Under the pieces are notes generated by a model that was not told the origin of the DNA, ran no database searches, and was given only the letters and a program-made list of their open reading frames with translations. Positions 1,581 through 18,473 of a DNA stretch of 64,000 bases are shown piece by piece. Made by a program: the position numbers and the translations under genes. This DNA is from Flavobacteriales bacterium (GTDB lineage Bacteria > Bacteroidota > Bacteroidia > Palsa-965), in NCBI GenBank assembly GCA_040377305.1, contig JBEIPA010000004.1, positions 96,001 to 160,000 of the forward strand, given 5' to 3'. Every line of letters starts with the position of its first letter. Within the stretch, counting starts at the first letter, position 1.

Positions 1581-1967
1581 ATGCCCAGCATGTCTTCAGA
1601 AAAAATCCATACTATCTATGTCAAAGATCTTGCGCACCTTCTCGGGGTAACCGACCTGCGCACCGCGAAGCGCTGGTGTAGGCTAAACAGCGTTGCTATC
1701 CTCACGGATCGCGGCCGCCGCGTGTCATATGTCGTGCGTTCCGAGTATGAAGCCGCACGACTTAGTGCATTTATCAAGTTGTTAAAGAACCGGCATGGTA
1801 AAGACTGGTTCATTGCATTTCACGCGCACGTTGATTTCAACATTGAATTATTATCGACCATGCATGCAACGAACGGGAAAAAACAATCTGGAAGAAGTTT
1901 TGAGTCATTAGATAATACGGGAAAACATGAGCAAAGGTTTCTTGAGTCTCTTACCAGTTTAAAATAA
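1581..1967 (+). CDS. Putative excisionase-like HTH DNA-binding protein
   Basis: N-terminal HTH-like segment YVKDLAHLLGVTDLRTAKRWC; ends 7 bp upstream of the integrase. Confidence 0.55.
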   Translation: MPSMSSEKIHTIYVKDLAHLLGVTDLRTAKRWCRLNSVAILTDRGRRVSYVVRSEYEAARLSAFIKLLKNRHGKDWFIAFHAHVDFNIELLSTMHATNGKKQSGRSFESLDNTGKHEQRFLESLTSLK

Positions 1968-1974
1968 CCCGTAG

Positions 1975-3381
1975 ATGACAAAACCTATCTACATACCACC
2001 CGATTCAAAACGGGTCTCTGGCCTCCATATTCAGTGCCGGTCCTGTAACGCCCTCGCCGATCTCGGCATCTGCAACAAGACGAAAAAAGCAATCAATAGC
2101 AACTGTCCCGGAAGAAATACAATGTGCTACAAAGCGGTCGTGCACGTGCCGGGCACCAAAAACGGACGGAAGACGAAAATTTTGAAAGCCGTTCAGTATG
2201 AAGAGGCCATCGCTGAATTTCTCGAATTCAAAAACTCTTTCAAGGAATCAACGTTGGAGAATATCCCTGCGCCCGCCCTACTTCCGAAAATTCCGCCACC
2301 AGAAAAAGAAAAGACTCCAGGACTTATTGCACTCATGGCAAAGTATGTCGGCTATCTGCATGGCGACAACATACCCAGCTTCAAAAAGAAAACGCGCAGC
2401 AAGGGTCATCTCGATGATGTTGAACGTTGCCTTAAAAGATGGGTCACGGCTTTGCACGAGAACGGCCATATTCCCAGTGCTATTCGCGCCGATGAAGTCA
2501 ACGATGATCTCATCTCCGAGTTGCACGATTACCTCATTGACGATCTGGAAATAGGGAATAGCGGATACAATCGCAGCCTTACCATCCTCACTTCGTTCTA
2601 TCGCTATCTCATCAACGAAGGATACTGCACTAAAAATCCCTTTCTCGACATACCAAGAAAAGCAGTTAAGGAAAGCGTCGAAACAATAGAGCAAGATCAA
2701 TTCGAGCGCTTGCTCGAAATTCTGAAGAAGCCCGAACTTGGTCTGCGGCCACTACCCAATGGCGTGCGCAAGAACTTCTACAAAAGCTGGATGCCGAGCG
2801 CCGTATCTCTGGCTCTCTATAGCGGACGGCGTCGCACCGAATGCGTACTCATGAAGTGGAAAGATGCTGTTTATAACGACGGCATTTTGCAACACGTGAT
2901 CGTACCTGATTACAAAGTCAACCGTGCGAAAAATCTGCCTCCTGAAAACTGGATCTACCGGTATGTTCCTGGCACTGCTGAATTGCATAACCTCTTAGAA
3001 GAATTGGGAAAGGAAAGTCGTAACCCCGATGATTACATACTTGCTCCCGATGAGGTTATGTCCCGCGCATCAATGGCTAGTCTCATGTCTAAATCATTCG
3101 CTCACTATTTTTCCCAACTCGGATACCAGAAGCAATTATCCTTCGGCTGTCTGCGCCGTACCAATTTCAGTTCACTTTCAAGCGCAATCGGCATGGAGAA
3201 CGCGCGAACGATCAGCGGGCATGCAGACAACAAAACACTCAAGAAATTCTATGTCTCGCAGAAGGTCCTTGCTCGAGCGGCCAAACAACATGGTGTCTTT
3301 GACGAGAGAAAAAAAGACGAACAGCAGCGCGCTACTGATGACATTTTGAAGCCAGATTCTGATCACAGCATCGACCGCTGA
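1975..3381 (+). CDS. Tyrosine recombinase/integrase
   Basis: SAM-like core (LTSFYRYL...NPF); catalytic R (SGRRRTE), LRRT, SGH and Tyr (KKFY); adjacent to a tRNA. Confidence 0.9.
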   Translation: MTKPIYIPPDSKRVSGLHIQCRSCNALADLGICNKTKKAINSNCPGRNTMCYKAVVHVPGTKNGRKTKILKAVQYEEAIAEFLEFKNSFKESTLENIPAPALLPKIPPPEKEKTPGLIALMAKYVGYLHGDNIPSFKKKTRSKGHLDDVERCLKRWVTALHENGHIPSAIRADEVNDDLISELHDYLIDDLEIGNSGYNRSLTILTSFYRYLINEGYCTKNPFLDIPRKAVKESVETIEQDQFERLLEILKKPELGLRPLPNGVRKNFYKSWMPSAVSLALYSGRRRTECVLMKWKDAVYNDGILQHVIVPDYKVNRAKNLPPENWIYRYVPGTAELHNLLEELGKESRNPDDYILAPDEVMSRASMASLMSKSFAHYFSQLGYQKQLSFGCLRRTNFSSLSSAIGMENARTISGHADNKTLKKFYVSQKVLARAAKQHGVFDERKKDEQQRATDDILKPDSDHSIDR

Positions 3382-5913: not shown

Positions 5914-6321
5914 CTATTTCCGCTTAAACGAATATTCGATTACGCGCACTGCAGCCAGTGAAGTATCACTCACCGTTTCAGTAACAACAAGTTTCTTGCG
6001 TGTGAGTTCCTGAATGGTTGTTCCCATCAAGGTTAACGGATCCCCCGGATCGCCGGTCCAGGAAACACCGAATCCAGCCGGAGTAATCTCCAACGAATTG
6101 ATCGATTGATTACCCAATTCTTCATCGTCCCACAGATATAGTTCTCCTGAATTCGGCACGACCGAATCGCGCGACGGTTCGTTGTTGACGTAGAAAATAT
6201 ATTTCACTTCGGTTGCTTCCCACACACCGCCAAGTCGCTTTTCGTTGAGCCTTTCCTTGTTACATGCGAATAGAAAAATCGCAATCAACACCGGCACAAT
6301 TGTTCTTCTGATTGTCTGCAT
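5914..6321 (-). CDS. Lipoprotein (possibly lipocalin-like)
   Basis: Start reassigned to MQTIRR; lipobox LFAC followed by LGGVWEAT. Confidence 0.7.
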   Translation of the reverse strand: MQTIRRTIVPVLIAIFLFACNKERLNEKRLGGVWEATEVKYIFYVNNEPSRDSVVPNSGELYLWDDEELGNQSINSLEITPAGFGVSWTGDPGDPLTLMGTTIQELTRKKLVVTETVSDTSLAAVRVIEYSFKRK

Positions 6322-6322
6322 A

Positions 6323-7012
6323 CTAATCATAATGTTTACCGAGTCGGAATGTGATACCTGCTGATAATGTAACGCCAATGAAATCCAGTGTTGCCTTCTC
6401 TGCGTTGTAAGAGAAATTCGGCGACAGTTCCGGATGATTTTTCAGGTAGAACGCCTGGCACATGAGATCAAACCAAATCACATCCGTCATTCTGCGCAAA
6501 TAATTTATGCGTGCTGTGCCTCCCAGATTTACCCAACTCATCATGCCCGATACGCCCACAAAAGCGTCCTTCGTCCCATCCGGATACTGCGCGTAACTGT
6601 ATGCCCCACTTTGCGAATGCAGCAATCCAATTTCAATGGTGTACTCCGAATTCTCCGAGTAACCGAAGTACCCAATGTTTGCCACAGTGAAATTATAATC
6701 GTACTTAATAATTCGTTTCGTTCCATTGGTAAATTTCGCAGTGGTTTGCGCTTCCAGATGTGTACGTCCAATGGAAGCCGAAAGGTGCAACACGCGGTAA
6801 CCAGCGTTCATCGAATAGCCATACCCGAACATAGGCATGCCGAGTTTCTTATCCAATGTCCCGGCATTCGCAGCATTGTACTCACGCCGGTAGCCGGAAA
6901 AGAATCCGGGGGCATTCACCGAACCCGTGCCCTGAAAGGAAATAACGAACTGTGCGTTCACTTCACCGACGAGCAACAGCACAAAGAAGAGAATGAATGT
7001 GATCTGTCTCAT
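6323..7012 (-). CDS. Putative outer-membrane beta-barrel protein
   Basis: Signal peptide, alternating beta-strand pattern, C-terminal LSAGITFRL. Confidence 0.65.
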   Translation of the reverse strand: MRQITFILFFVLLLVGEVNAQFVISFQGTGSVNAPGFFSGYRREYNAANAGTLDKKLGMPMFGYGYSMNAGYRVLHLSASIGRTHLEAQTTAKFTNGTKRIIKYDYNFTVANIGYFGYSENSEYTIEIGLLHSQSGAYSYAQYPDGTKDAFVGVSGMMSWVNLGGTARINYLRRMTDVIWFDLMCQAFYLKNHPELSPNFSYNAEKATLDFIGVTLSAGITFRLGKHYD

Positions 7013-7017
7013 GTGCG

Positions 7018-7794
7018 TTAGTTAAAATGTAAAAGCAAAGACACCATCGTGTTCGTTATCGGAAATCTTTTCTCCGACCAGGGTATGTTCGTGTATTTCC
7101 CTGTTGATGACAACATGCTTCCATCGAGGACAGGACGTGTGTGCACCAGACGGAGCGTGAAAATGGAAAAATCATACGACGCAGAAAACGAATACCCGGC
7201 GATTGGAGTTTTCGGCTGGGGACCATCCTTTATTACACCCATCACATAAAACCACGGCTCCCATTTCGACATCTCTCCGCCAGCATTGCTGTACTTAATC
7301 TTGGTGCGAAGGAATCCGAGATCCGCACCAACACCAATTTTCAAACGACCTCCGGTTGGACGATAGCCTAAATTGAAGAAGGCCATATTCGTACTCATCT
7401 TGACTTTCTCCTCGTACTTCACCGGAGTTCCGCCAGGAGTTGGTTCATACGTATAAGCAAACGAATTTTTTTTGAAGCGCATTGTCCAGCCAAACTCTGC
7501 TGTGACTTTGGCGTTTTCATACGGATACATTTCATAGCTGATAGTGGCACCATGAAAATTATTCATGCTTCCGTACTTCTCATTCACTTCGAGAACAGAC
7601 TGCGAAGTATCCGCAGCGATTCCGTTTCTACGTTCACAGTAAATCTCCGGTCCCGACATGTGATAGGTATACATTCCGTACCCATACCCCATTCTCAAAC
7701 CACTTCCGTCGTAGTCTTGCGCGCATAATTGAGGCAAACCATAAACAAAAAGTGCGAAGAGCACGAGAACTTTTCTGGTCTCTGAATAAATCAT
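7018..7794 (-). CDS. Putative outer-membrane beta-barrel protein
   Basis: Start reassigned to MIYSET; signal peptide ending LCA-Q; amphipathic strands; ends VSLLLHFN. Confidence 0.65.
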   Translation of the reverse strand: MIYSETRKVLVLFALFVYGLPQLCAQDYDGSGLRMGYGYGMYTYHMSGPEIYCERRNGIAADTSQSVLEVNEKYGSMNNFHGATISYEMYPYENAKVTAEFGWTMRFKKNSFAYTYEPTPGGTPVKYEEKVKMSTNMAFFNLGYRPTGGRLKIGVGADLGFLRTKIKYSNAGGEMSKWEPWFYVMGVIKDGPQPKTPIAGYSFSASYDFSIFTLRLVHTRPVLDGSMLSSTGKYTNIPWSEKRFPITNTMVSLLLHFN

Positions 7795-7898
7795 GGATGC
7801 GAAGATCGCATTTGTTCCGAAAGAATAAACCGATGCGCATCGAATTCCACTACGCAATTATTCGTATTTCCGGATGAAAGAATTCGCAGATGTGTGCC

Positions 7899-8546
7899 CT
7901 ACAAATACAACCCGTTCTTGATTGCGTACATGACAATGCCCACAGAATTTCTTGCCTTTATCTTCTCGAGAATCATTTCCCGGTGGCCTTCGATGGTACG
8001 TATGCTAAGATTCATGCGGTCGGCAATTTCCGCGTTGGTCAGCTCCTGACAGATGAGTTGGATCACCTTTGTTTCTCTTTCCGTTAAGGAGACCTTGTTG
8101 AAATTCGGTTTCACTTTTTCTCCGAGCACAAGTCGTTGCAACAGCGCGCGCGAAACACGATCGTCGAAATAATATCCGGTATCCATTACGGAGTGTATGG
8201 AGTCAATCAACGTTTCAATCGGATCGTTCTTCACCAGAAATCCATGTGCCCCATTTTCGATCATGTGTGCAATGATGGGTTCCTCATTGTGCATCGTGAG
8301 AATGATCACGCGTACTGCGGGATGCGTTTCTTTCAGCCAGGCCATTGTTGCCATTCCGTCCATCACAGGCATTTCAAGATCAAGCAAAACCACATCCGGT
8401 TTTTTCCGCTTCATCTTATCCTGCAGATCCTTTCCGTTGTCGGCCTCGATCACCACTTTTAGTTCAGGAAATTCGCTCAGCAGGGAAATTAATCCCTTGC
8501 GAAACATCACCTGATCGTCTGTAACTGCTATGTTGAACTTTGCCAT
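7899..8546 (-). CDS. NarL/LuxR family DNA-binding response regulator
   Basis: REC domain (TDD, LLDLEMPVMDG, LTMH, GFLVK) and LuxR HTH (LTERE...TNAEIADRMNLSIRTIEGHR). Confidence 0.95.
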   Translation of the reverse strand: MAKFNIAVTDDQVMFRKGLISLLSEFPELKVVIEADNGKDLQDKMKRKKPDVVLLDLEMPVMDGMATMAWLKETHPAVRVIILTMHNEEPIIAHMIENGAHGFLVKNDPIETLIDSIHSVMDTGYYFDDRVSRALLQRLVLGEKVKPNFNKVSLTERETKVIQLICQELTNAEIADRMNLSIRTIEGHREMILEKIKARNSVGIVMYAIKNGLYL

Positions 8547-9349
8547 ACTGCCGGTACTTCAATTATTACTTCTGAATCTGATTGACCTTTTGTTAAGTAC
8601 TGAATAGTACCGTTTACGAGTTGCACCCGGCTTTGGATACTCTTCAACCCAACTCCTTTTTCGGATTGAGCGAGTTCTGTTGCCGCTTCATTCGATATCC
8701 CCAAGCCATTGTGGTGAATTCGCACACTGAGACTTGCATCTGTTGCACGAACAGAAACATCCAGTGCTCTCGCCTGCGAATGTTTCAGAATGTTGTTGAT
8801 TACTTCCCGCACAGCACGATACAATTGCAACTCCGACCGCGGATGTATACGACGGTCATTCGTGTCTAAATGAGTCTCCACTTTCACTTGTCCGGATGCA
8901 TTGATCTGTCTGCACAACTCGGTAATTCCTTTATCAAAACCCAGCTTCACCAGCGTAGGTGGCATGAGGTCATGTGCAATACCGCGAACAGTTTGTATGC
9001 TCTCGTCAATCATGGTTAAGCTTTCCTTCACGAGCTCTTCTGTCTTTGGAACATCTGCCGCATTGCGTGAAAGCTTCGTCATCTGCAGGCGGATTACATT
9101 CAGTAGCGTGCCTACATCGTCGTGAATATTCTTTGCAATTTTTTCACGCTCCTGTTCGGCCACTTCCATCGATGCATCCAGCAATTCTTTCTGGTGACGG
9201 TTTTCTGCCGCCTGAATCTCGTTTTGTTGCGCGAGTACTTTGCGTTGGTACAGGGCCACGAACATGATGATCGACACAACGAGTGTCAACATTGCGACGG
9301 TGCCGATGGCAACCAACATCACTACTGGTATTGTTTCCTGGCTTTCCAA
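8528..9349 (-). CDS. Sensor histidine kinase (HisKA_3) with a single N-terminal TM helix
   Basis: H-box EREKIAKNIHDDVG, N-box EVINNILKHS, G2 GVGLKSI. Start uncertain (TTG at 9349 or ATG at 9319). Confidence 0.9.
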   Translation of the reverse strand: MESQETIPVVMLVAIGTVAMLTLVVSIIMFVALYQRKVLAQQNEIQAAENRHQKELLDASMEVAEQEREKIAKNIHDDVGTLLNVIRLQMTKLSRNAADVPKTEELVKESLTMIDESIQTVRGIAHDLMPPTLVKLGFDKGITELCRQINASGQVKVETHLDTNDRRIHPRSELQLYRAVREVINNILKHSQARALDVSVRATDASLSVRIHHNGLGISNEAATELAQSEKGVGLKSIQSRVQLVNGTIQYLTKGQSDSEVIIEVPAVWQSST

Positions 9350-9912
9350 AATGCTATTGTCAATATGACTGAATAAGACATTCTCAATACCGCGTGCATC
9401 ATCCAAAGGCTATTGAATAAGTCCCGTGAAATTCTGCTTGCATAATTTACTGAACTGAAAACAAAGATAGCGCCCCCAAAGTAAATCAGGATAGCGCTCA
9501 GAATCCAGAAATTAGGAGTAGAAGTCAGCGATGTGAATTTCATGTCTGTCATGAAATGATAGAACGCCATCACAGAGTACGTTACAAAAACGGCCGATTC
9601 ACAAACCAATACCAGATTGTCAAAAGAGATAGTATTTCCTGAGAATTTAAAATCCGCAACAACTATCAACGGAAAGAGGATCATCAACGAAATAATGATT
9701 CTTGAAAAGTATCTTCTTTGTGACAGGAAGAGAAAAAACAAACTTGTGAGTTCAAATTCCAGGAACGAGTAGATCCTTGTTACTACCGTGCCAACTGCTG
9801 GTGTTTTAAAATTCAATATGGACAAATCGGAACACGCTGAAACCAATGTTAGAAGAATGATCACTTTTATTCCTCGGCTGCATTTTCCAAAAACGAACAT
9901 TCCCAACGCCAA
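9322..9912 (-). CDS. Multi-pass (about 6-7 TM) membrane protein, putative sensor partner of the kinase; natural start may be 9973 via a frameshift
   Basis: Successive hydrophobic helices; overlaps or abuts the kinase start. Confidence 0.75.
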   Translation of the reverse strand: MALGMFVFGKCSRGIKVIILLTLVSACSDLSILNFKTPAVGTVVTRIYSFLEFELTSLFFLFLSQRRYFSRIIISLMILFPLIVVADFKFSGNTISFDNLVLVCESAVFVTYSVMAFYHFMTDMKFTSLTSTPNFWILSAILIYFGGAIFVFSSVNYASRISRDLFNSLWMMHAVLRMSYSVILTIAFWKARKQYQ

Positions 9913-10025
9913 AGGAATGAGTGTCGCAAACGTGCTTATTCTCTGAAATATTTCACTCCAATCCTAACTCCATTAGTGGTATTAACGTTATTAACGCGAA
10001 GATACAGCCCTATTATAGATAGAAC

Positions 10026-10059
10026 AATCACAGGAGAGTGTTAGCCCTCTCCCGTGATT
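10026..10059 (-). terminator. Stem-loop after the CPxxC protein gene (weak terminator or mRNA stabiliser)
   Basis: AATCACAGGAGAG...CTCTCCCGTGATT with a weak U-tract. Confidence 0.55.
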
Positions 10060-10066
10060 AGTTCAA

Positions 10067-10378
10067 TTATAACGGACTTCCGTTGGTGTCACAATATGTC
10101 GGACAGCCCATGCTACGGTCACCAATAATTCCTCCGGTCATGTCATTGCCCTCTGCATTTACACCCACAAATACAAGTTGTTTATTCCCGTCTGTGTCTT
10201 CTGCGTAATATGCGCGTATGCCTACACAACCTGTTTGCGCAAGAATGCTGGAGATAATTGCTTTTCCGATATACTGCGCACGATAACCATATGCATGATC
10301 ACCGTTTCTATAGTTAGCAGTCATTGCAGCTGCTTCTTCAAGGGAAATCTGCTCCCCTTCCTTACCGTCAAATGCCAT
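10067..10378 (-). CDS. Small hypothetical protein with C-terminal CPxxC motif
   Basis: 103 aa; I recognise the pattern ISLEEA..MTANYR / GIRAYY / LVFVGV..GND / CPTYC from Bacteroidota two-component loci; no signal peptide. Confidence 0.85.
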   Translation of the reverse strand: MAFDGKEGEQISLEEAAAMTANYRNGDHAYGYRAQYIGKAIISSILAQTGCVGIRAYYAEDTDGNKQLVFVGVNAEGNDMTGGIIGDRSMGCPTYCDTNGSPL

Positions 10379-10507
10379 AAATTTTTTGTTTTAGGTGGTT
10401 GTTAACTGATTTTCTTAAAAATAAGGAAACGCTAGTAACGATAATCGAATCACGACGAAATGGTGTTTTCGTACTGACTTTATTCTCAGTGTTTTAATAA
10501 AAAAACA

Positions 10508-10581
10508 GGGGTAAACACCCCCGTATTTCTACGGTAAAAAACCCGTAGTAATACGGTAGAAAAAATCAGGTAGTAATACCC
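10508..10581. promoter_or_regulatory. Array of 14-bp palindromic operator-like sites (CCGTA-N4-TACGG)
   Basis: CCGTATTTCTACGG at 10521, CCGTAGTAATACGG at 10543, AGGTAGTAATACCC at 10568, plus GGGGTAAACACCCC at 10508. Confidence 0.7.
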
Positions 10582-10661: not shown

Positions 10662-10856
10662 ATGGAGAGCAACGATCATTTGCGCGGACAGTACATCAAC
10701 ATCAAAGAAGAACGCGAGTTACTGTATTGGTCGTACATGCTCGAGTGCGAAAAAGAAGATGTGGTGAAAGCTGTAATTAAAATCGGAACAAGTGCGAAGA
10801 TGGTCGACGACTATCTCTACATGAACCGGAGAAAACTTTCTTCAAATGGCCAATAA
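10662..10856 (+). CDS. DUF3606-like small protein
   Basis: Pattern INIKEERELLYW...VVKAVIKIGTS..VDDYL; start reassigned to ATG 10662. Confidence 0.7.
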   Translation: MESNDHLRGQYINIKEERELLYWSYMLECEKEDVVKAVIKIGTSAKMVDDYLYMNRRKLSSNGQ

Positions 10857-11190
10857 AACCGCTGCTGGAAACCCGTTCAGCGACGATGTGATTCAAAAAA
10901 TCTGGGAGAAAGCGCAACCCGTTCCCGGCGAAGATCCTGCGCGCATCCGTCGCGATATCTGCGGAGCAATTATTCACCGCGAAGATTTTAATAAAGCCGT
11001 AAAAGCACTTTCCTTCGGCTGGGAAATTGATCACATCAAACCTATTTCAAAAGGTGGCAGCGACGATTACCACAACCTTCAGCCACTGCAATGGGAAAAC
11101 AATCGAGGCAAAGGAGATGAGCATCCTTCGTGGAATTGTAGAGTGGGAAGCGCGTTGAAGGTGAATGGTTATTTGAAAAACGAACTCTAG
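10846..11190 (+). CDS. HNH endonuclease family protein
   Basis: WEIDHIKPISKGGSDDYHNLQPLQWENNRGK HNH motif. Confidence 0.9.
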   Translation: MANKTAAGNPFSDDVIQKIWEKAQPVPGEDPARIRRDICGAIIHREDFNKAVKALSFGWEIDHIKPISKGGSDDYHNLQPLQWENNRGKGDEHPSWNCRVGSALKVNGYLKNEL

Positions 11191-11536: not shown

Positions 11537-14500
11537 ATGAAGTCAATCAGAAACATTTTCTTCGTTACTCCCGTTTTGTTTTGCCTGTCAACGAAAGCAC
11601 AAAACGTTTATGACACCTATAATCCAATTGTAGATTCCATTGTCACAACATATGGCGAAGACTCAAACTACTACGCATTTACCGGAGAGTATCAAATCTT
11701 TAGTAATCTATTAGAGTCTTGGGAGGCAGCTTCATCTTTAGGATACTCTATCTCATACAAAATTGAGCCGGTTTCTTTTCCTTTCACTCCGGATTGCTCA
11801 AATGGTGATTGCGGAAATAGTTCGAGCTCCACTAGAGATTTAGTACTGATCGGCAGCTACGTCTATGGTGATTACAATTTCCATCGTGCTTTGGATACAA
11901 TGTCTAGTTATTCCACGTTGCTTAGTAACAAATTCACAAATACAGCCCCTCCTGGGGGTATGCGAGACTTCATTCCACATACAGTACTAAAGCACACATT
12001 GTTTTTACACTTCGGAGCCTCCGTTAACAGTCCTGTTGTAGATTCTTTTGTGTTTCTGCTCGATCATACTAGAGGTTTTATGTCCGAATATCCCTTTCGC
12101 AATGACAACGATGAATCGGACCCGGCAGAGCATGACGTTACAATTTTTCCATGGTTCATCTATACTCACAACGATTCCTTTCTAACCGTTCCAAACCAAG
12201 GAACCAATTTCATGAATACGGTAGATTACTTTCCTTTTCCGGACGCACATTATTTTCCCGATAGTCTTATTCCCGCTTGGTTGATGGTACCACAGCCAAA
12301 TACACCTAATATTTATCTAGCGCCTGAATATTTCTTGCATCCATCACCATATTCTCTCGTCGGTGTATTGGTGGCAAATTACGCGTGGGATCCTTTTGCT
12401 GGCTTGCAAAGTCAGGTGGTGATGGGCCATGCACCTCATACCTATTACATCGATACCGCAATGGATTTGACGACAATCAATCCAAGAGAAAGAATTATCT
12501 ACAACCCTTCGGCGGTCTACATCACTGCTGCTGATCCGATCGTATTTCCGAGTGGTTACACTTTCATGACAGTGGGCGGAAAATATCCTACCAAAATTCA
12601 AGTGGAAGCAATTGACTCAGACACCATGTATGCCGATCTACGCGAAGTGCCAGTCATAGGTGCGGCTTTGAATCTTACCGATAATCCGAATACTACAGCT
12701 GTCGACAGTATGTCCTATTATTATGTCACTGCTGGATGCACTCTGAGAATCGAGCCATGTGTAACAATATATGATGCGACAATTGTAGTGCAAACAGGTG
12801 GGAGAATTGAACTCGATACTAATGGCGTAGGCGGCAACTATATTCTTCTCGTTGATTCTGGCGGTGTGTTAGTTCAACAGAACTCGAATCCTAGTGTTCC
12901 TTGCAGTTATATGTGCTTTGAGTCTTCGCACTATAATCAACGACATGTAACAATTAGTTCGAATACAACTTGGGATACAACAAATGTGGAGTCAGCCTTT
13001 CCAGGAAGCGCGATGTGGTCTGCAGCAACGAATAACACTGTGAAATTCGTAGAAGGAATTACCATTGACTCGGGCATCACATTAACAATTGGAGCGGGGG
13101 TAAATTTGCTTTTCGGTCCGAACGGTAAAGTCATTGTGAAAAAAGGCGGACGTCTTATTGTAAATGGAACTGCGACGGACAGTTGTCTCTTTGGACCAGC
13201 CTGTCAGTTGGAATGGAATGGAATAGAGGTGTGGGGAGATTCGGCAATCACCCAATTCGTTGGAACTGGCTATACGCTTCAAGGCTATCTCGATATGGAT
13301 TATTGTGTAGTTGAACATGCGAGAACTGCTGTGACATTAGGAAAGCCAGGAACACTTGAAAACAACGGTGGCGTAATTAAAGCATATCATTGTTCTTTTC
13401 TGAATAATGTGCACGATGTAGTATTTCAGCCCTACCGCAATTTCGTGAACACGGGTCCATATTATCCGACTGCATATAATATCAGTTTACTCAGTGCTTC
13501 TGAATTCCGAACAACGGAATATTTCTTTGACGCAAGTCTCAATCTGGACGTTGACGATGGACCATCCTCAGCATCTTCTCACATTGTTCCGGATGGAGTA
13601 AAAGTGCGGCACATCGCAAGTTGTACATTTGCTAATGATACCCCTAATAACTACGCTCCTCATTTGCGTGGAACTGGGATTTCGGGTTTTGAAAGTGGGT
13701 TATTGTTGCAGTCTCAAAATCCAAATCGCTTCGAAGGTCTTTCGGATGGAGTTTGGATGAAAGGTGTAGGGACATCTGCTTATGCGATGAATTTATCTGC
13801 TCAAACATTTAAGAATAACATTCATGCTATCGTTTGTGAAGGCACTCGTTTCAGTGCGATCTTGGCAGATACGATTGATGTTCCTGAATCTCCACAGTAT
13901 GGGTATGATTCTTTGGATCTCGAGTTAGGTTACGATAAGCCCGTTGGTGTTTTTATGATTGGCTCAATTGATTACAGAATTGAGGACAATCAATTTAATG
14001 TCGGGGATACAACGACTCAAATCACACCGATGGCTTCGTGCAAAGACTGCTCGTATAACATTGTAATATACAACACCGCGTGGCCAACACCTGCCAATAC
14101 CGGAAATGGCACAATCTACAACAACAACATTCATCATGCGAGTATTGGAATTCAGGCACAAGGAAACAATGGAGTGGGTGGTTTCGGAAATGATGGGGCG
14201 GAATTTATTTGTAACGATTTTGAAGAGAGCGAATTTTTCGACTTCCTTCTAATAGGTCGCGGGTGGATGCCCTCTGCACCCGCCGTGCAATCAACAATTC
14301 GCGATCAGGGAAACTGCGACCCCAACGCTCCGCATTTGAAAGCTACAAATTACTATGATGGTTGTGACTTTCCATCCGATAGTCAAGCACATTATTTTTA
14401 TGCGACCTCATCTTCATTTGTCTATAATGATCTTTCCGTAACTTCTCCTGCGTGCCATAATATTGGTCTAGTCTACTGCAACCCACTAGAAAATCCTAAT

Positions 14501-15628
14501 CCATGTGGATCTCATCTCACGGGACTGTATTGGGCTCCGATTCTTACCAAATACAATACTGCTACAACTGCACATGAGAATGCACGACACCTATTAGACT
14601 CGCTTGTTGATGGAGGCAGTACAGAGGATGCTCTCGATTTGATCAAAGATAAATCCGGGAGTGATCTTTATGATGAACTAGAGAAACTTTCACCGTGGCT
14701 GTCTGACATTGTCCTGCTGGATCTATTGGAGGAGCATAACAGAAGCAAACTTAATGAGGAGCAACTAGTCGCAATTCTTCTGCTGAATGGACGATTGTCT
14801 CAAGTGGTTTACGATGCTGCCATAAATACATCGCCGGAACTTGCCGGTGCATCAATCGATGCACTTACTGCAAATCAAGAAAATATCGGTGCACGTGAAT
14901 TGAAAGAAAGAGAATGGCACACTATGTTGTTTGAAGCAGACAAGGAGGCGACTGTAATAGTCGAATATGCATTGAGCTCGGACTCAATTGTAGAAGGCGC
15001 CAATGCATTAAGACACGCTGAACCAATTCCGGAAATGCAAAAATTATTTACGTTGCAGTTGGCTGCGTGCCGATTTGATGCCGCACGAGGAACCTTAGAT
15101 TCAATCTTTATAAAACAGGGAAATGTAGAAACATTCTGGACTGTGTTGGCGAGTATATCAATAGTTCAGGCTGAAGAGAATCGGAGTTGGAGCAGTGCGA
15201 CTATTGAAGAAATTCAAGTAGCAGATAGTATTTGGGGTGAATACGGTGAAGAATTTATTGGCGCAAGAGTCGCTGTATCACGATACACCAAGCAAGGATT
15301 TCTGCGATCTCCGTTTGACCTGGAGTCCAGTTCGGAGCGTCGGGCTAACCCAGATTCAGACGCGCCTTTACTTACGCAAAGCACAACTATGAATGTGTTC
15401 CCCAACCCGGCAACGCATTCAGCGACGATAACAATTAATGGAGCTTCGAATCTGACAGGTTATCTGGAAGTCGTTAATTCCGTTGGACAGACGGTAAATC
15501 GCATATCATTAGCGCAGGGCAGCCAGATTACGATCAATCTGGACGAATATCCGTCAGGCATTTTGTACCTTAGACTAGTCAGCGAAGGGGAGTGTTTAGA
15601 TACCGAAAAGTTGATAATAATGCGATGA
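11537..15628 (+). CDS. Large T9SS-secreted protein with probable beta-helix region
   Basis: Signal peptide; WNGIEVWG and parallel-beta-helix-like repeats; CTD VFPNPA...GILYLRL...KLIIMR. Confidence 0.85.
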   Translation: MKSIRNIFFVTPVLFCLSTKAQNVYDTYNPIVDSIVTTYGEDSNYYAFTGEYQIFSNLLESWEAASSLGYSISYKIEPVSFPFTPDCSNGDCGNSSSSTRDLVLIGSYVYGDYNFHRALDTMSSYSTLLSNKFTNTAPPGGMRDFIPHTVLKHTLFLHFGASVNSPVVDSFVFLLDHTRGFMSEYPFRNDNDESDPAEHDVTIFPWFIYTHNDSFLTVPNQGTNFMNTVDYFPFPDAHYFPDSLIPAWLMVPQPNTPNIYLAPEYFLHPSPYSLVGVLVANYAWDPFAGLQSQVVMGHAPHTYYIDTAMDLTTINPRERIIYNPSAVYITAADPIVFPSGYTFMTVGGKYPTKIQVEAIDSDTMYADLREVPVIGAALNLTDNPNTTAVDSMSYYYVTAGCTLRIEPCVTIYDATIVVQTGGRIELDTNGVGGNYILLVDSGGVLVQQNSNPSVPCSYMCFESSHYNQRHVTISSNTTWDTTNVESAFPGSAMWSAATNNTVKFVEGITIDSGITLTIGAGVNLLFGPNGKVIVKKGGRLIVNGTATDSCLFGPACQLEWNGIEVWGDSAITQFVGTGYTLQGYLDMDYCVVEHARTAVTLGKPGTLENNGGVIKAYHCSFLNNVHDVVFQPYRNFVNTGPYYPTAYNISLLSASEFRTTEYFFDASLNLDVDDGPSSASSHIVPDGVKVRHIASCTFANDTPNNYAPHLRGTGISGFESGLLLQSQNPNRFEGLSDGVWMKGVGTSAYAMNLSAQTFKNNIHAIVCEGTRFSAILADTIDVPESPQYGYDSLDLELGYDKPVGVFMIGSIDYRIEDNQFNVGDTTTQITPMASCKDCSYNIVIYNTAWPTPANTGNGTIYNNNIHHASIGIQAQGNNGVGGFGNDGAEFICNDFEESEFFDFLLIGRGWMPSAPAVQSTIRDQGNCDPNAPHLKATNYYDGCDFPSDSQAHYFYATSSSFVYNDLSVTSPACHNIGLVYCNPLENPNPCGSHLTGLYWAPILTKYNTATTAHENARHLLDSLVDGGSTEDALDLIKDKSGSDLYDELEKLSPWLSDIVLLDLLEEHNRSKLNEEQLVAILLLNGRLSQVVYDAAINTSPELAGASIDALTANQENIGARELKEREWHTMLFEADKEATVIVEYALSSDSIVEGANALRHAEPIPEMQKLFTLQLAACRFDAARGTLDSIFIKQGNVETFWTVLASISIVQAEENRSWSSATIEEIQVADSIWGEYGEEFIGARVAVSRYTKQGFLRSPFDLESSSERRANPDSDAPLLTQSTTMNVFPNPATHSATITINGASNLTGYLEVVNSVGQTVNRISLAQGSQITINLDEYPSGILYLRLVSEGECLDTEKLIIMR

Positions 15629-17049
15629 GGAAATTTGCACTTGTTATTGTTGTAAATCTGTTGTGCGAAATAGCTCCTGCACAACAGATTTATTTTAATA
15701 ATTTCTATGATGTCGCTGGTTTTCCTAATTACACGAGTAGTGTTATTCAAAAACCCGATAGCGGATTTATTTTTATAAACACAGATATTGGACCAATTCA
15801 GAAAGGGTATGTTATTACGGGCACTGACAAGTTTGGCGATACTATTTTTACTAAGCCCTACTATTACACGAACCTTGTCGTTACTACCGGATCAACGCAT
15901 TCTTTAATCCCAACACAGGATGGGAACTATTTGGTTTCGGGAACAGGGATCGATACAGCCAATGTGCGTGACGGTTGGTTAATAAAATTTACTCCGGCGG
16001 GTGACACACTTTGGACAAGTCGGTATGGGGGAGCAGCAGGGGATTATATTAATTCGATTTATGAGGATTCACAAGGAGACATTTGGGGATGTGGTTCTAC
16101 TTCGAGTTGGGGGAATGGGTTAAGCGATTTTTGGTTAATGCGCTTCGATTCCAATGGAATTCTACTTTGGGACACAACTTTTGGCACACCTCAAAACGAA
16201 GGATGTGTAAGCGGAGAACTGACTGCTGACGGTGGAATAATTATGGCGGGCAGAACTGACGGAATTCCGTATGTCGTTAAGGTTAATGCCAGCGGACAGG
16301 TTGATTGGCAGTATGCTTATTCTAATTATAATGGTTACGGCTATGTTTCGGCCGCACCTGATTCTGGATATATTATTGCTTGTGGTAAAATTATCTCTGC
16401 AAATGAAGAGCAAGGTGTCATATTAAAACTGAACTCCAATGGTGTTGAATTGTGGAATAGATATGTTGGCTTCGCAAACACGGGTGAAGGATTGTCTGCT
16501 AAACCAATAGTAACCGCGAATAGTATAGTAGTAAGTGGAGTTAGCGCTCCAGTTAGTGGGTACTATAGAGGATTCTTAGCTAAAACAGACATTTTCGGAT
16601 TCATGCTCTGGCAAAGAGCTTACACTCTAGACAGCACTCACAATCACTATGTGTATGAATGTTTGGCGACTTCTGATAGTGGTTATTTACTAGCCGGTTC
16701 AACTTTTCAGACCACTCAAAATGCCTGGCTAGTGAAAGTAGATAGTATGGGATGTGAAGTTGCTGGGTGCGATGCCGTGAATATCAACGAACAACAGGCG
16801 GAACAAGCGATTCGTGTCTATCCAAATCCCGCAAGGGAATATGTTTCAGTTGCATTTTTGGGAGACCACATCGGCGCTACGCGTCTAGAGATTTTCAATT
16901 CAGAAGGAAAACTAGTTGATTGTGCTTTCTTCGATGGGCTCCGTTTGCTTACTATTTCAACTACGGAATATGCTGAGGGAATCTATTTTTTACGGGTGAT
17001 GCGAGAAGGAGAATGCATTGATTCGCAAAAACTGGTCGTAATTAGGTGA
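15625..17049 (+). CDS. T9SS-secreted beta-propeller-like protein (paralog 1)
   Basis: Repeats of type WLIKF..GDTLWT; CTD VYPNPA; ATGA overlap with the upstream stop. Confidence 0.85.
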   Translation: MRKFALVIVVNLLCEIAPAQQIYFNNFYDVAGFPNYTSSVIQKPDSGFIFINTDIGPIQKGYVITGTDKFGDTIFTKPYYYTNLVVTTGSTHSLIPTQDGNYLVSGTGIDTANVRDGWLIKFTPAGDTLWTSRYGGAAGDYINSIYEDSQGDIWGCGSTSSWGNGLSDFWLMRFDSNGILLWDTTFGTPQNEGCVSGELTADGGIIMAGRTDGIPYVVKVNASGQVDWQYAYSNYNGYGYVSAAPDSGYIIACGKIISANEEQGVILKLNSNGVELWNRYVGFANTGEGLSAKPIVTANSIVVSGVSAPVSGYYRGFLAKTDIFGFMLWQRAYTLDSTHNHYVYECLATSDSGYLLAGSTFQTTQNAWLVKVDSMGCEVAGCDAVNINEQQAEQAIRVYPNPAREYVSVAFLGDHIGATRLEIFNSEGKLVDCAFFDGLRLLTISTTEYAEGIYFLRVMREGECIDSQKLVVIR

Positions 17050-18473
17050 GAATTTTTATCGCATTTCTTTTTTCCAACCTGTTATTCGAGTTTTTACCCG
17101 CTCAACAGACCTATTTTAATAACTACTATGAAGTATCCGGCTATACAAACTATACTTCTAGTGTAATTCAGAAATCGGACAGCGGATATATTTTCATTAA
17201 TACCGATGTGGGGCCTGTATACAAAAGCTTCGGTTTTGTTAATGTGAATAAATTCGGCGACACACTGTACTCTAAAAATTACTACTACCAGTATTTGCTC
17301 TTTTCTAGCGGCGTAACTCATTCTCTAATTCAAACCCAAGATGGAAATTATCTCGTCTCTGGCAGTGTGATGGATACCTCAAATACCAGACAAGGATGGT
17401 TAGCGAAGTTTGATCCCAATGGAGATACTTTATGGACAAGGTATTATGGCGGAGTTGCCAATGATTACATAAATTCCCTTTATGAAGACGCGCAGGGAGA
17501 TGTGTGGGGATGTGGATCAACATCGAGCTGGGGAAATGGACTCAGTGATTTTTGGTTAGTTCATTTTGATGCAAATGGCCTCGCAATATGGGATACGACT
17601 TTTGGTACCAACCAAAGTGAAGGCTGTGTTAGTGGTGAACTCACTGATGATGGTGGAATAATTATGGCTGGTAGGACTAACGGAAGTCCGTATGTCGTGA
17701 AAGTTGACGCTGCAGGCAACTCAGAATGGCAATTCGCATACCCAAATTATAGTGGATATGGTTACATTTCGACTGCTGCTGATTCAGGTTACATTGTCGG
17801 TTGTGGCGAAGTAATTTCTGCCGCTGAAGCTCAAGCAGCAATATTAAAATTGAATTCCGATGGAACACTTGATTGGGTTAAACATGTTGGATTTGTTGGT
17901 GTTGAAGATATCATCACTACAAAACCTGTTGTTTCAGATAGTAACATTGTAGTGTCAGGTGTAAGTACTACGGCAACATCAGGTTATTATACAGGCTTTT
18001 TGGCTAAAACAGATATTCAAGGATATATGCTTTGGCAGAGAACGTACACGTTAGACAGTATGCACAGCCACCACGTTTACGAATGCTTAGCTACATCCGA
18101 TGGCGGTTATTTACTTGGCGGCTCCACTTTTCAGTCGACTCAAAATGCCTGGCTAGTGAAAGTAGATAGCTTGGGATGCGAAGTTGCCGGATGTGATGCT
18201 GTCGGAATTTCAGAATTGAACGAATCAAATAATGTCTCAGTCTATCCTAATCCCGCTAACAACTTAATCACGATCGAAATAGGGGTTCCCGATTTTACAA
18301 ATTCAACTTTTGAACTTTTTTCGTCAACTGGTCAATTGGTAAAAAGTGAGCTCATCGTGAATGACTTAGTTGTCCAGATTAATGTCGCTGATCTCGAACC
18401 TGGTTTATATTTCTACAGGCTAAGTGATCAGACGGACAAATCCTATCAAGGCTGTGTTCTAATCACCCACTAG
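17046..18473 (+). CDS. T9SS-secreted beta-propeller-like protein (paralog 2)
   Basis: Colinear with paralog 1 (WGCGSTSSWGNGLSDFWL is identical); GTGA overlap; different CTD. Confidence 0.85.
   Translation: MRIFIAFLFSNLLFEFLPAQQTYFNNYYEVSGYTNYTSSVIQKSDSGYIFINTDVGPVYKSFGFVNVNKFGDTLYSKNYYYQYLLFSSGVTHSLIQTQDGNYLVSGSVMDTSNTRQGWLAKFDPNGDTLWTRYYGGVANDYINSLYEDAQGDVWGCGSTSSWGNGLSDFWLVHFDANGLAIWDTTFGTNQSEGCVSGELTDDGGIIMAGRTNGSPYVVKVDAAGNSEWQFAYPNYSGYGYISTAADSGYIVGCGEVISAAEAQAAILKLNSDGTLDWVKHVGFVGVEDIITTKPVVSDSNIVVSGVSTTATSGYYTGFLAKTDIQGYMLWQRTYTLDSMHSHHVYECLATSDGGYLLGGSTFQSTQNAWLVKVDSLGCEVAGCDAVGISELNESNNVSVYPNPANNLITIEIGVPDFTNSTFELFSSTGQLVKSELIVNDLVVQINVADLEPGLYFYRLSDQTDKSYQGCVLITH

Follow-up and report, generated by a model that had tools for sequence, protein, structure and literature searches.

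The window analysed here is a 64,000-nt stretch of a Flavobacteriales genome (GenBank assembly GCA_040377305.1, contig JBEIPA010000004.1, positions 96,001 to 160,000). Its minus strand carries a cassette of four co-oriented genes, encoding a small protein (S), a membrane protein with seven predicted helices (T), a histidine kinase and a NarL-family response regulator. Comparison of homologous cassettes supports an action of the S domain outside the cytoplasm, and the promoter of S is probably autoregulated through an array of palindromes. The reading we prefer, and hold with somewhat less than even confidence, is that the cell makes S as a ligand for T, which would read it on the outer side of the membrane, with positive feedback.

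S (10067-10378, minus strand, as are all four genes) has 103 amino acids, with an alpha/beta core and a C-terminal CPxxC tail. T (9322-9973) is a stand-alone membrane protein, and the kinase (8528-9349) and regulator (7899-8546) have 273 and 215 amino acids, respectively. T overlaps the kinase gene by 28 nt and the kinase gene overlaps that of the regulator by 19 nt, in line with an initial annotation of this DNA, in which the last three genes overlap or abut; it was also right that this copy of S lacks a signal peptide. The kinase is counted from a TTG at 9349; a start at 9406 was dropped in favour of 9349 by homology with another cassette, L065 (L denotes fetched loci, G genomes and C contigs of the source genome, G000, which is 99.99% complete).

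The S profile finds 2,985 cluster representatives at 50% clustering, and a draw of genomes across the phylum gave an S match in 51 of 401; despite this, neither S nor T belongs to a named family, library scans of Pfam and NCBIfam giving no match for either. We fetched the 80 closest of 284 genome loci, a set that is biased toward similarity to S. T follows S in 78 of the 80, the two misses being contig ends, a kinase is present in 73 and a NarL regulator in 63, which bears out the earlier statement that this gene order recurs in Bacteroidota. In the phylum draw, T lies directly behind S in 27 of 29 non-self loci, with one other order and one locus cut off. Among closer relatives, S was found in 12 of 41 genomes (tallies from this draw, here and for the paired sites below, include the unpublished genome G012, on which no claim rests alone). 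S belongs with T, because the pair persists when the class of kinase changes: five loci (L039, L042, L047, L076, L077) have a PAS-HisKA kinase instead, and PAS-bearing HisKA_3 kinases accompany the pair in other loci (seven scanned).

In all loci examined, T and the kinase are encoded by genes of their own. Searches for longer, fused forms, which were weak, found none for T, with the kinase or otherwise, and only tandem S-S forms for S. No relatives of S were found in viral contigs, annotated phages or PHROGs. The cassette is expanded in several loci (L003, L012, L046, L065, L110, L126). In L003 (1934-5501), S is accompanied by four T paralogs and there is no kinase in the locus; the other expansions are two T genes, two S genes, and one T between an S without and an S with a signal peptide. 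Cassettes also occur in assemblies titled Akkermansia, Rhizobium or Hydrocarboniphaga (L036, L037, L056, L067), likely through binning contamination, because the L067 regulator sits within a Bacteroidota clade.

The model of S has a pLDDT (predicted local distance difference test) of 87, and the tail is ordered (pLDDT 82-87). No clear match to a PDB structure was found (no Foldseek E value below 0.09; best VIA Z score 3.2), from which novelty of the fold does not follow, and in the ESM Atlas both S and T match only unnamed Bacteroidota clusters. In the family alignment the invariant residues lie mostly within the folded core, and the close family has three conserved cysteines. Among 211 S-family proteins, tandem duplications number 83, and a hydropathy rule assigns 41 a signal or lipoprotein peptide. 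In 99 of 118 motif-bearing single-domain proteins, the Cys ring, of five residues, lies 7-10 residues before the C-terminus. Tandem proteins carry CPxxC in the last domain in 70 of 83 cases and in the first domain in 33 of 83; because they keep the motif mostly in the last domain, the fold can do without CPxxC and the terminal position matters. Tandem S-S lipoproteins, with CPxxC usually in the last domain only, include P0066, P0068, P0072, P0089, P0096, P0098, P0100, P0101, P0104, P0111 and P0113.

A signal-bearing S stands directly before T in 14 of the 29 phylum loci and in L047, as judged by eye. These proteins end at the tail, without a further sorting domain, and the neighbouring T keeps its outer-half residues (N58 in 11 of 15, Y65 and E69 in 13 of 15 each). 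A tree built from 55 S domains requires five changes in signal-peptide status, at least two of them forced by strong branches; signal-less copies are nested among signal-bearing ones, and the two kinds are close kin in L125 and L126. Given the signal-bearing S in homologous cassettes, the nesting of signal-less copies among them on the tree and the outer residues kept by the partner T, the S domain likely acts outside the cytoplasm.

T was described initially as having six or seven transmembrane helices. That it spans the membrane several times holds, and the count can be set at seven predicted helices (AlphaFold2 model, pLDDT 95). All 50 matches listed for T by VIA are proteins of the G protein-coupled receptor (GPCR) fold or rhodopsins, with Z scores of 11.2-14.7 and root-mean-square deviations of 3.3-4.8 (7ytb, for example, has Z 12.6 and a deviation of 4.0 over 205 aligned residues), in a range where, for helical bundles, a Z under about 13 may reflect merely a common arrangement. 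Foldseek agrees weakly (best E value 4.6e-3). T has no sequence match to any PDB structure, and no family is common to more than one of 74 T proteins. The Lys plus Arg content is high in loops 1, 3 and 5 and the C-terminus (2.8, 2.5, 1.7 and 2.4) and low in the N-terminus and loops 2, 4 and 6 (0.2, 0.8, 0.9 and 1.0), a pattern that predicts an N-out/C-in topology. Family residues in helix 7 are W187, H190, N194 and N198. No lysine occurs in the middle of this helix, the sole common lysine lying at its cytoplasmic end; T therefore would not bind retinal. Conservation within T is highest in helices 6 and 7, in the inner half of each, as would be expected of an output face. T changes faster than the other cassette proteins (identity to the closest cassette 35%, compared with 64% for S, 76% for the regulator and 82% for the kinase), and in 50 close T pairs the outer half is 56% and the inner half 63% identical. 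A complex prediction for T and S scored 0.00; the controls did not fold, and the result is no evidence in either direction.

The kinase has a single N-terminal hydrophobic helix followed directly by HisKA_3 (His76) and HATPase_c domains, with no sensor domain. A profile of the transmembrane helix ranks the three T-adjacent kinases of the source genome first (E values 7e-14, 9e-8 and 1e-5; the next is 0.15), which supports the initial proposal that T provides the input to this sensorless kinase. Because the same S-T pair feeds several kinase classes, the set formed by S, T and the docking helix resembles a portable input module. The phospho-acceptor His76 and the N-box Asn are present in all 52 complete cassettes, and the Asp of the G1 box is replaced by His (His213 in the window) in 44 of the 52, the register having been checked against DesK. 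This Asp normally contacts adenine, and a kinase with an Asp-to-Asn change has been reported to prefer GTP, which VanS does not (10.1101/2022.12.12.520123). Among solved structures, kinase and regulator are most closely related to DesK, VraS and VraR. The regulator combines Response_reg (Asp56) with a GerE helix-turn-helix domain, and is alone among the 15 GerE proteins of the genome in having Arg189-Glu190; one other has Ile-Glu.

The initial annotation placed several palindromes upstream of S. Three are of one type, GTA-N4-TAC (10521-10534, 10543-10556 and 10568-10581), and are likely regulator binding sites; a fourth (10508-10521) has a different spacer and belongs to a terminator-like hairpin beside the proximal site (10505-10524, minus strand). 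Across 79 upstream regions, GTA-N4-TAC occurs 103 times, in 46 regions, compared with 6.0 +/- 2.5 times in shuffled sequences, and spacers other than 4 are far rarer upstream of S. Neighbouring sites are spaced by 22-26 bp and mostly lie 140-230 bp before S; they also occur in loci whose upstream gene has the same orientation as S (L002 and L010 among others). Their flanks are clade-specific and track the regulator tree. No such array was seen in the five PAS-HisKA loci. It is likely, on these comparisons, that the array is bound by the cassette's own regulator and that the promoter is autoregulated, in line with the earlier proposal. About 100 bp downstream of the array, at 10416-10423 (minus strand), lies a putative -7 box with one mismatch to the consensus TAnnTTTG (PMC6847099), a spacing that fits activation better than repression. 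A scan for sigma-70 promoters gave only chance-level results (8 matches compared with 9.3).

The source genome has 15 perfect CCGTA-N4-TACGG sites, 10 of which fall in four intergenic arrays. One is the S promoter. The others precede a 591-amino-acid signal-peptide protein followed by two genes for type IX secretion system (T9SS) cargo (C50:5379), an 83-amino-acid protein with DUF3467 divergent (C52:211174), and a 325-amino-acid signal-peptide protein with two small lipoprotein-like genes (C56:55747). A looser array at C30:68692 precedes lipoprotein-like genes of 63 and 158 amino acids. The genes behind the arrays mostly encode exported proteins and are likely a regulon. The source genome and G015, whose regulator is the closest, have 14 paired-site matches each, and 37 of 41 genomes have none; single matches in G013 and G034 were set aside as lying within the control range of 0 to 6 per genome. 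In G015, one array precedes each of two tandem S genes, and two target regions are common with the source genome. A single perfect operator also lies about 115 bp before a gene for a 251-amino-acid response regulator (C7:120208). All 12 regulators with Tyr190, from three places in the tree, are paired with an outer A, and 9 of the 11 with Glu190 are paired with an outer C. A recognition code at residue 190 was nevertheless rejected, as a column scan did not single out this residue for that base and shared descent explains much of the pattern.

The source genome holds two further sets of T, kinase and regulator. The lead gene of the first (C28:48247-55000, L100:1748-8314) is a distant S. Behind this cassette lie an operator pair with other flanks and then genes for a multi-core Cys precursor (112 amino acids, four DCCW-type repeats), an APH kinase, a HopA1-family protein and LanC, which we take to be a lanthipeptide-type cluster. 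The second set (C49:163236-165846) has one operator-like site upstream, and its kinase also has the G1 His.

The stem-loop noted initially behind S (10022-10064, minus strand) is strongly folded: its energy of -26.5 kcal/mol (z -7.4) was equalled by none of 200 shuffles, and it is likely a partial terminator or mRNA stabiliser. The gap between S and T is at least 35 nt in 35 of 74 loci with a full T; these gaps together with that of the window have a mean folding energy of -16.6 kcal/mol, compared with -7.1 kcal/mol after shuffling. A -7-like box before T, TATCTTCG (9997-10004, minus strand), may be an internal promoter, and the identical 8-mer occurs in L001 and L065. We set aside a general internal promoter in S-T gaps (32 of 36, compared with 9.9 in shuffles), many of the matches overlapping the T-run of the hairpin or preceding the hairpin; a clear box after the hairpin is confined to the window's clade. 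In the window, the ATG of T at 9973 is out of frame, leaving an open frame of 9322-9963. A contig from run X1 has five more letters behind 9956, one extra copy of a 5-nt repeat, which by arithmetic bring the ATG in frame and give an intact gene of 218 amino acids; run X1 is possibly the source sample, so its contig is not independent. The difference at 9950-9975 is likeliest an assembly slip, and may alternatively reflect a mixed population.

In the mechanism we propose, S would reach the outer face of T, and T would relay the signal to the kinase's one membrane helix. The phosphorylated regulator would then bind the upstream array and raise S together with a set of exported proteins, giving feedback that would be positive. 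S, perhaps dimeric, would work in folded form and present its terminal Cys-Pro loop, and would not be a thiolactone made by AgrB. The hairpin and internal promoter would let S be made in excess of T, kinase and regulator, and signal-less S would leave by a leaderless route, leakage or lysis. A wider and more speculative version, which we offer tentatively, is a widespread Bacteroidota protein-hormone system: S, a small folded protein with a novel fold that leaves the cell, or enters the periplasm on damage, and is activated by closing of its Cys-Pro loop, would bind a stand-alone T of GPCR fold docked on a one-helix kinase whose nucleotide pocket is of the His type, amplify itself via the array, and turn on secreted proteins and clusters for ribosomally synthesised and post-translationally modified peptides.

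Several observations weigh against S as a ligand. By the hydropathy rule, 120 of 128 single-domain S proteins, the window copy included, lack a signal peptide, and among 547 flanking open reading frames of the 80 loci there is no recurring exporter, protease or modifying enzyme, so the exit of the window S from the cytoplasm is unexplained. A folded 11-kDa protein would not get through an outer membrane unaided. Strain-specific pheromones are hypervariable, whereas the tail of S (70% identity) differs little from the core (74%); one tail cysteine is lost in some copies (L056, L063, L067). Once the kinase and regulator are accounted for, the correlation of S and T distances is 0.31, no higher than that of T and the regulator (0.31). 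The C49 set shows that T can occur behind an unrelated lead gene, of 190 amino acids. To these points is added the limited weight of the lower Z scores of T, mentioned above. In sae, moreover, the same promoter layout serves negative feedback (PMC5083920).

This last point leads to the closest rival, which casts S as an accessory protein made on induction and acting via T to damp or reset the kinase, in the manner of SaeP/SaeQ, CpxP or LiaX, the true stimulus being an outside cue sensed by T. We regard this as possible, ranking close behind the ligand reading. The sae layout is alike, with an autoinduced first promoter and an internal promoter for the rest, and the sae lipoprotein and membrane protein turn on phosphatase activity (PMC5083920); LiaX offers a precedent, being regulator-induced and acting at the surface without having a signal peptide (PMC6936494). 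Damping would also suit the conservation of S while T diverges, the expectation that signal-bearing S, having no sorting domain past the tail, would stay periplasmic, and the kinship of kinase and regulator with DesK, VraS and VraR. On the other hand it gives no reason for the signal-less majority of S, and a ligand circuit accounts at least as well for the tail's preference for the terminal position and for the lanthipeptide-type cluster that follows the C28 paralog. The two readings predict opposite signs for a reporter; we lean towards a ligand.

The remaining explanations seem to us improbable, in slightly increasing degree. The initial annotation proposed an agr-like autoinducing circuit, with the small protein or its disulfide-cyclised C-terminal peptide as the signal. 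In classical peptide quorum sensing, a C-terminal peptide of S would be cut off, cyclised and exported by dedicated machinery as in agr or ComX. The order signal-receptor-kinase-regulator, the Cys ring near the C-terminus, the likely autoregulation and the variable T would all suit it, but agr-type chemistry is not supported: the genome has no AgrB and the loci no recurring processing gene, the invariant residues of S lie mostly in a folded core, the tail is ordered in the model and about as variable as the core, and tandem domains keep the core without the tail. The alternative named in the initial annotation was a cytoplasmic redox or metal sensor, binding, in our formulation, the inner face of T or the kinase. 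The absence of signal peptides from the window S and most single-domain copies speaks for this, as do the three cysteines of the close family and the conservation of helices 6 and 7 in their inner halves; it is weakened by signal-peptide and lipoprotein forms of S that hold the same cassette position beside a T with its motifs kept, and by the cysteines themselves, the core cysteine being absent from the C28 paralog and tail cysteines from some other copies. Least probable is that S is a mere output of the regulator, a protective or effector protein without action on T. S does share its operator array with other likely targets, and the C49 set does without S; yet S stays beside T where the kinase class has changed and no array is seen, and in L003, a locus that lacks a kinase, beside four T paralogs.

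The surroundings of the cassette add several observations. Divergent DUF3606 and small HNH genes (10662-11190, plus strand) have their intergenic region in common with S; they are possibly co-regulated and are not part of the core. A small HNH gene is the commonest non-signalling neighbour in the 80 loci (11 of 80, across lineages) and may use the same operator array. The stretch directly downstream of the regulator (5914-7857) holds three genes in one orientation that belong to no family, two of them encoding signal-peptide proteins and one a lipoprotein-like product; a pair similar to them precedes another kinase-regulator set at C28:39312-40732. Three large signal-peptide proteins are encoded at 11537-18473, the first with a T9SS C-terminal domain (Pfam) and the other two with similar tails. 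A tyrosine integrase with a small upstream gene lies at 1581-3381. Further left on the same contig (C30:62500-72400) are a relaxase-like gene, the array at C30:68692, and an OLD nuclease and UvrD pair that is presumably Gabija-like; the integrase, the relaxase-like gene and this pair are possibly one integrated element.

If the ligand reading is true, T would be a minimal receptor of GPCR topology in bacteria, with its candidate ligand linked to it in the genome. With the operator motif the system can be tested directly, because wherever a cassette is present the motif provides both a promoter for a reporter and a candidate regulon, and the paralogous C28 cassette points to control of a lanthipeptide-type cluster. 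Our literature search, which did not extend to subscription journals and bioRxiv supplements, found nothing on the cassette or on peptide or protein communication in Bacteroidota.

Among known systems, sensory rhodopsins and their transducers pair a seven-helix N-out bundle with a separate membrane helix through which it signals. T is likewise a predicted N-out bundle of seven helices that would signal via a separate helix, but it lacks the mid-helix-7 lysine and any sequence match to solved structures, and the output of the cassette is a histidine kinase. The likeness to GPCRs is one of fold only (Z up to 14.7, best Foldseek E value 4.6e-3), with no sequence match. GPCR-like seven-helix folds do occur in bacterial and archaeal histidine kinases; the main text of that report does not mention Bacteroidota, and its supplements may list T proteins (PMC13581589). 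The cassette departs from agr in its regulator (Response_reg plus GerE, not LytTR), in sensor helices that are not fused to the kinase, and in AgrB, PF04647 having no match in the source genome and none recurring in the 80 loci. It shares with the staphylococcal system a small Cys-containing product and likely positive autoregulation.

LiaFSR and VraTSR resemble the cassette in having a HisKA_3 kinase, a NarL regulator and a membrane accessory protein, and LiaX is, as S would be, a signal-less induced protein acting outside, although it has 533 amino acids and no family match in common with S (PMC6936494). None of 74 T proteins matches the LiaF or VraT accessory families, and the cassette kinase has one helix. 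SaeS and SaeR are of other types than the HisKA_3 and NarL proteins of the cassette. SaePQRS of Staphylococcus aureus comprises an exported small protein, a membrane protein, a minimal kinase and a regulator under an autoinduced first promoter and an internal one (PMC5083920). An exported first protein and a membrane protein precede the kinase in 15 homologous cassettes as well, but the window S and most other copies lack a signal peptide, T has seven helices compared with four predicted for SaeQ, and no family links S or T to SaeP or SaeQ. In ComQXPA of Bacillus subtilis, a small protein with a C-terminal motif and no signal peptide is read by a hypervariable multi-helix sensor, with a HisKA_3 kinase and a NarL regulator. 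The cassette differs from it in having its sensor T as a protein of its own and S as a folded domain, with no conserved Trp around CPxxC, and in that no ComQ-like gene recurs in the cassette loci (the genome itself was not searched for ComQ). It is like ComQXPA in its gene order, its pairing of HisKA_3 with NarL, and the small signal-less protein that comes first.

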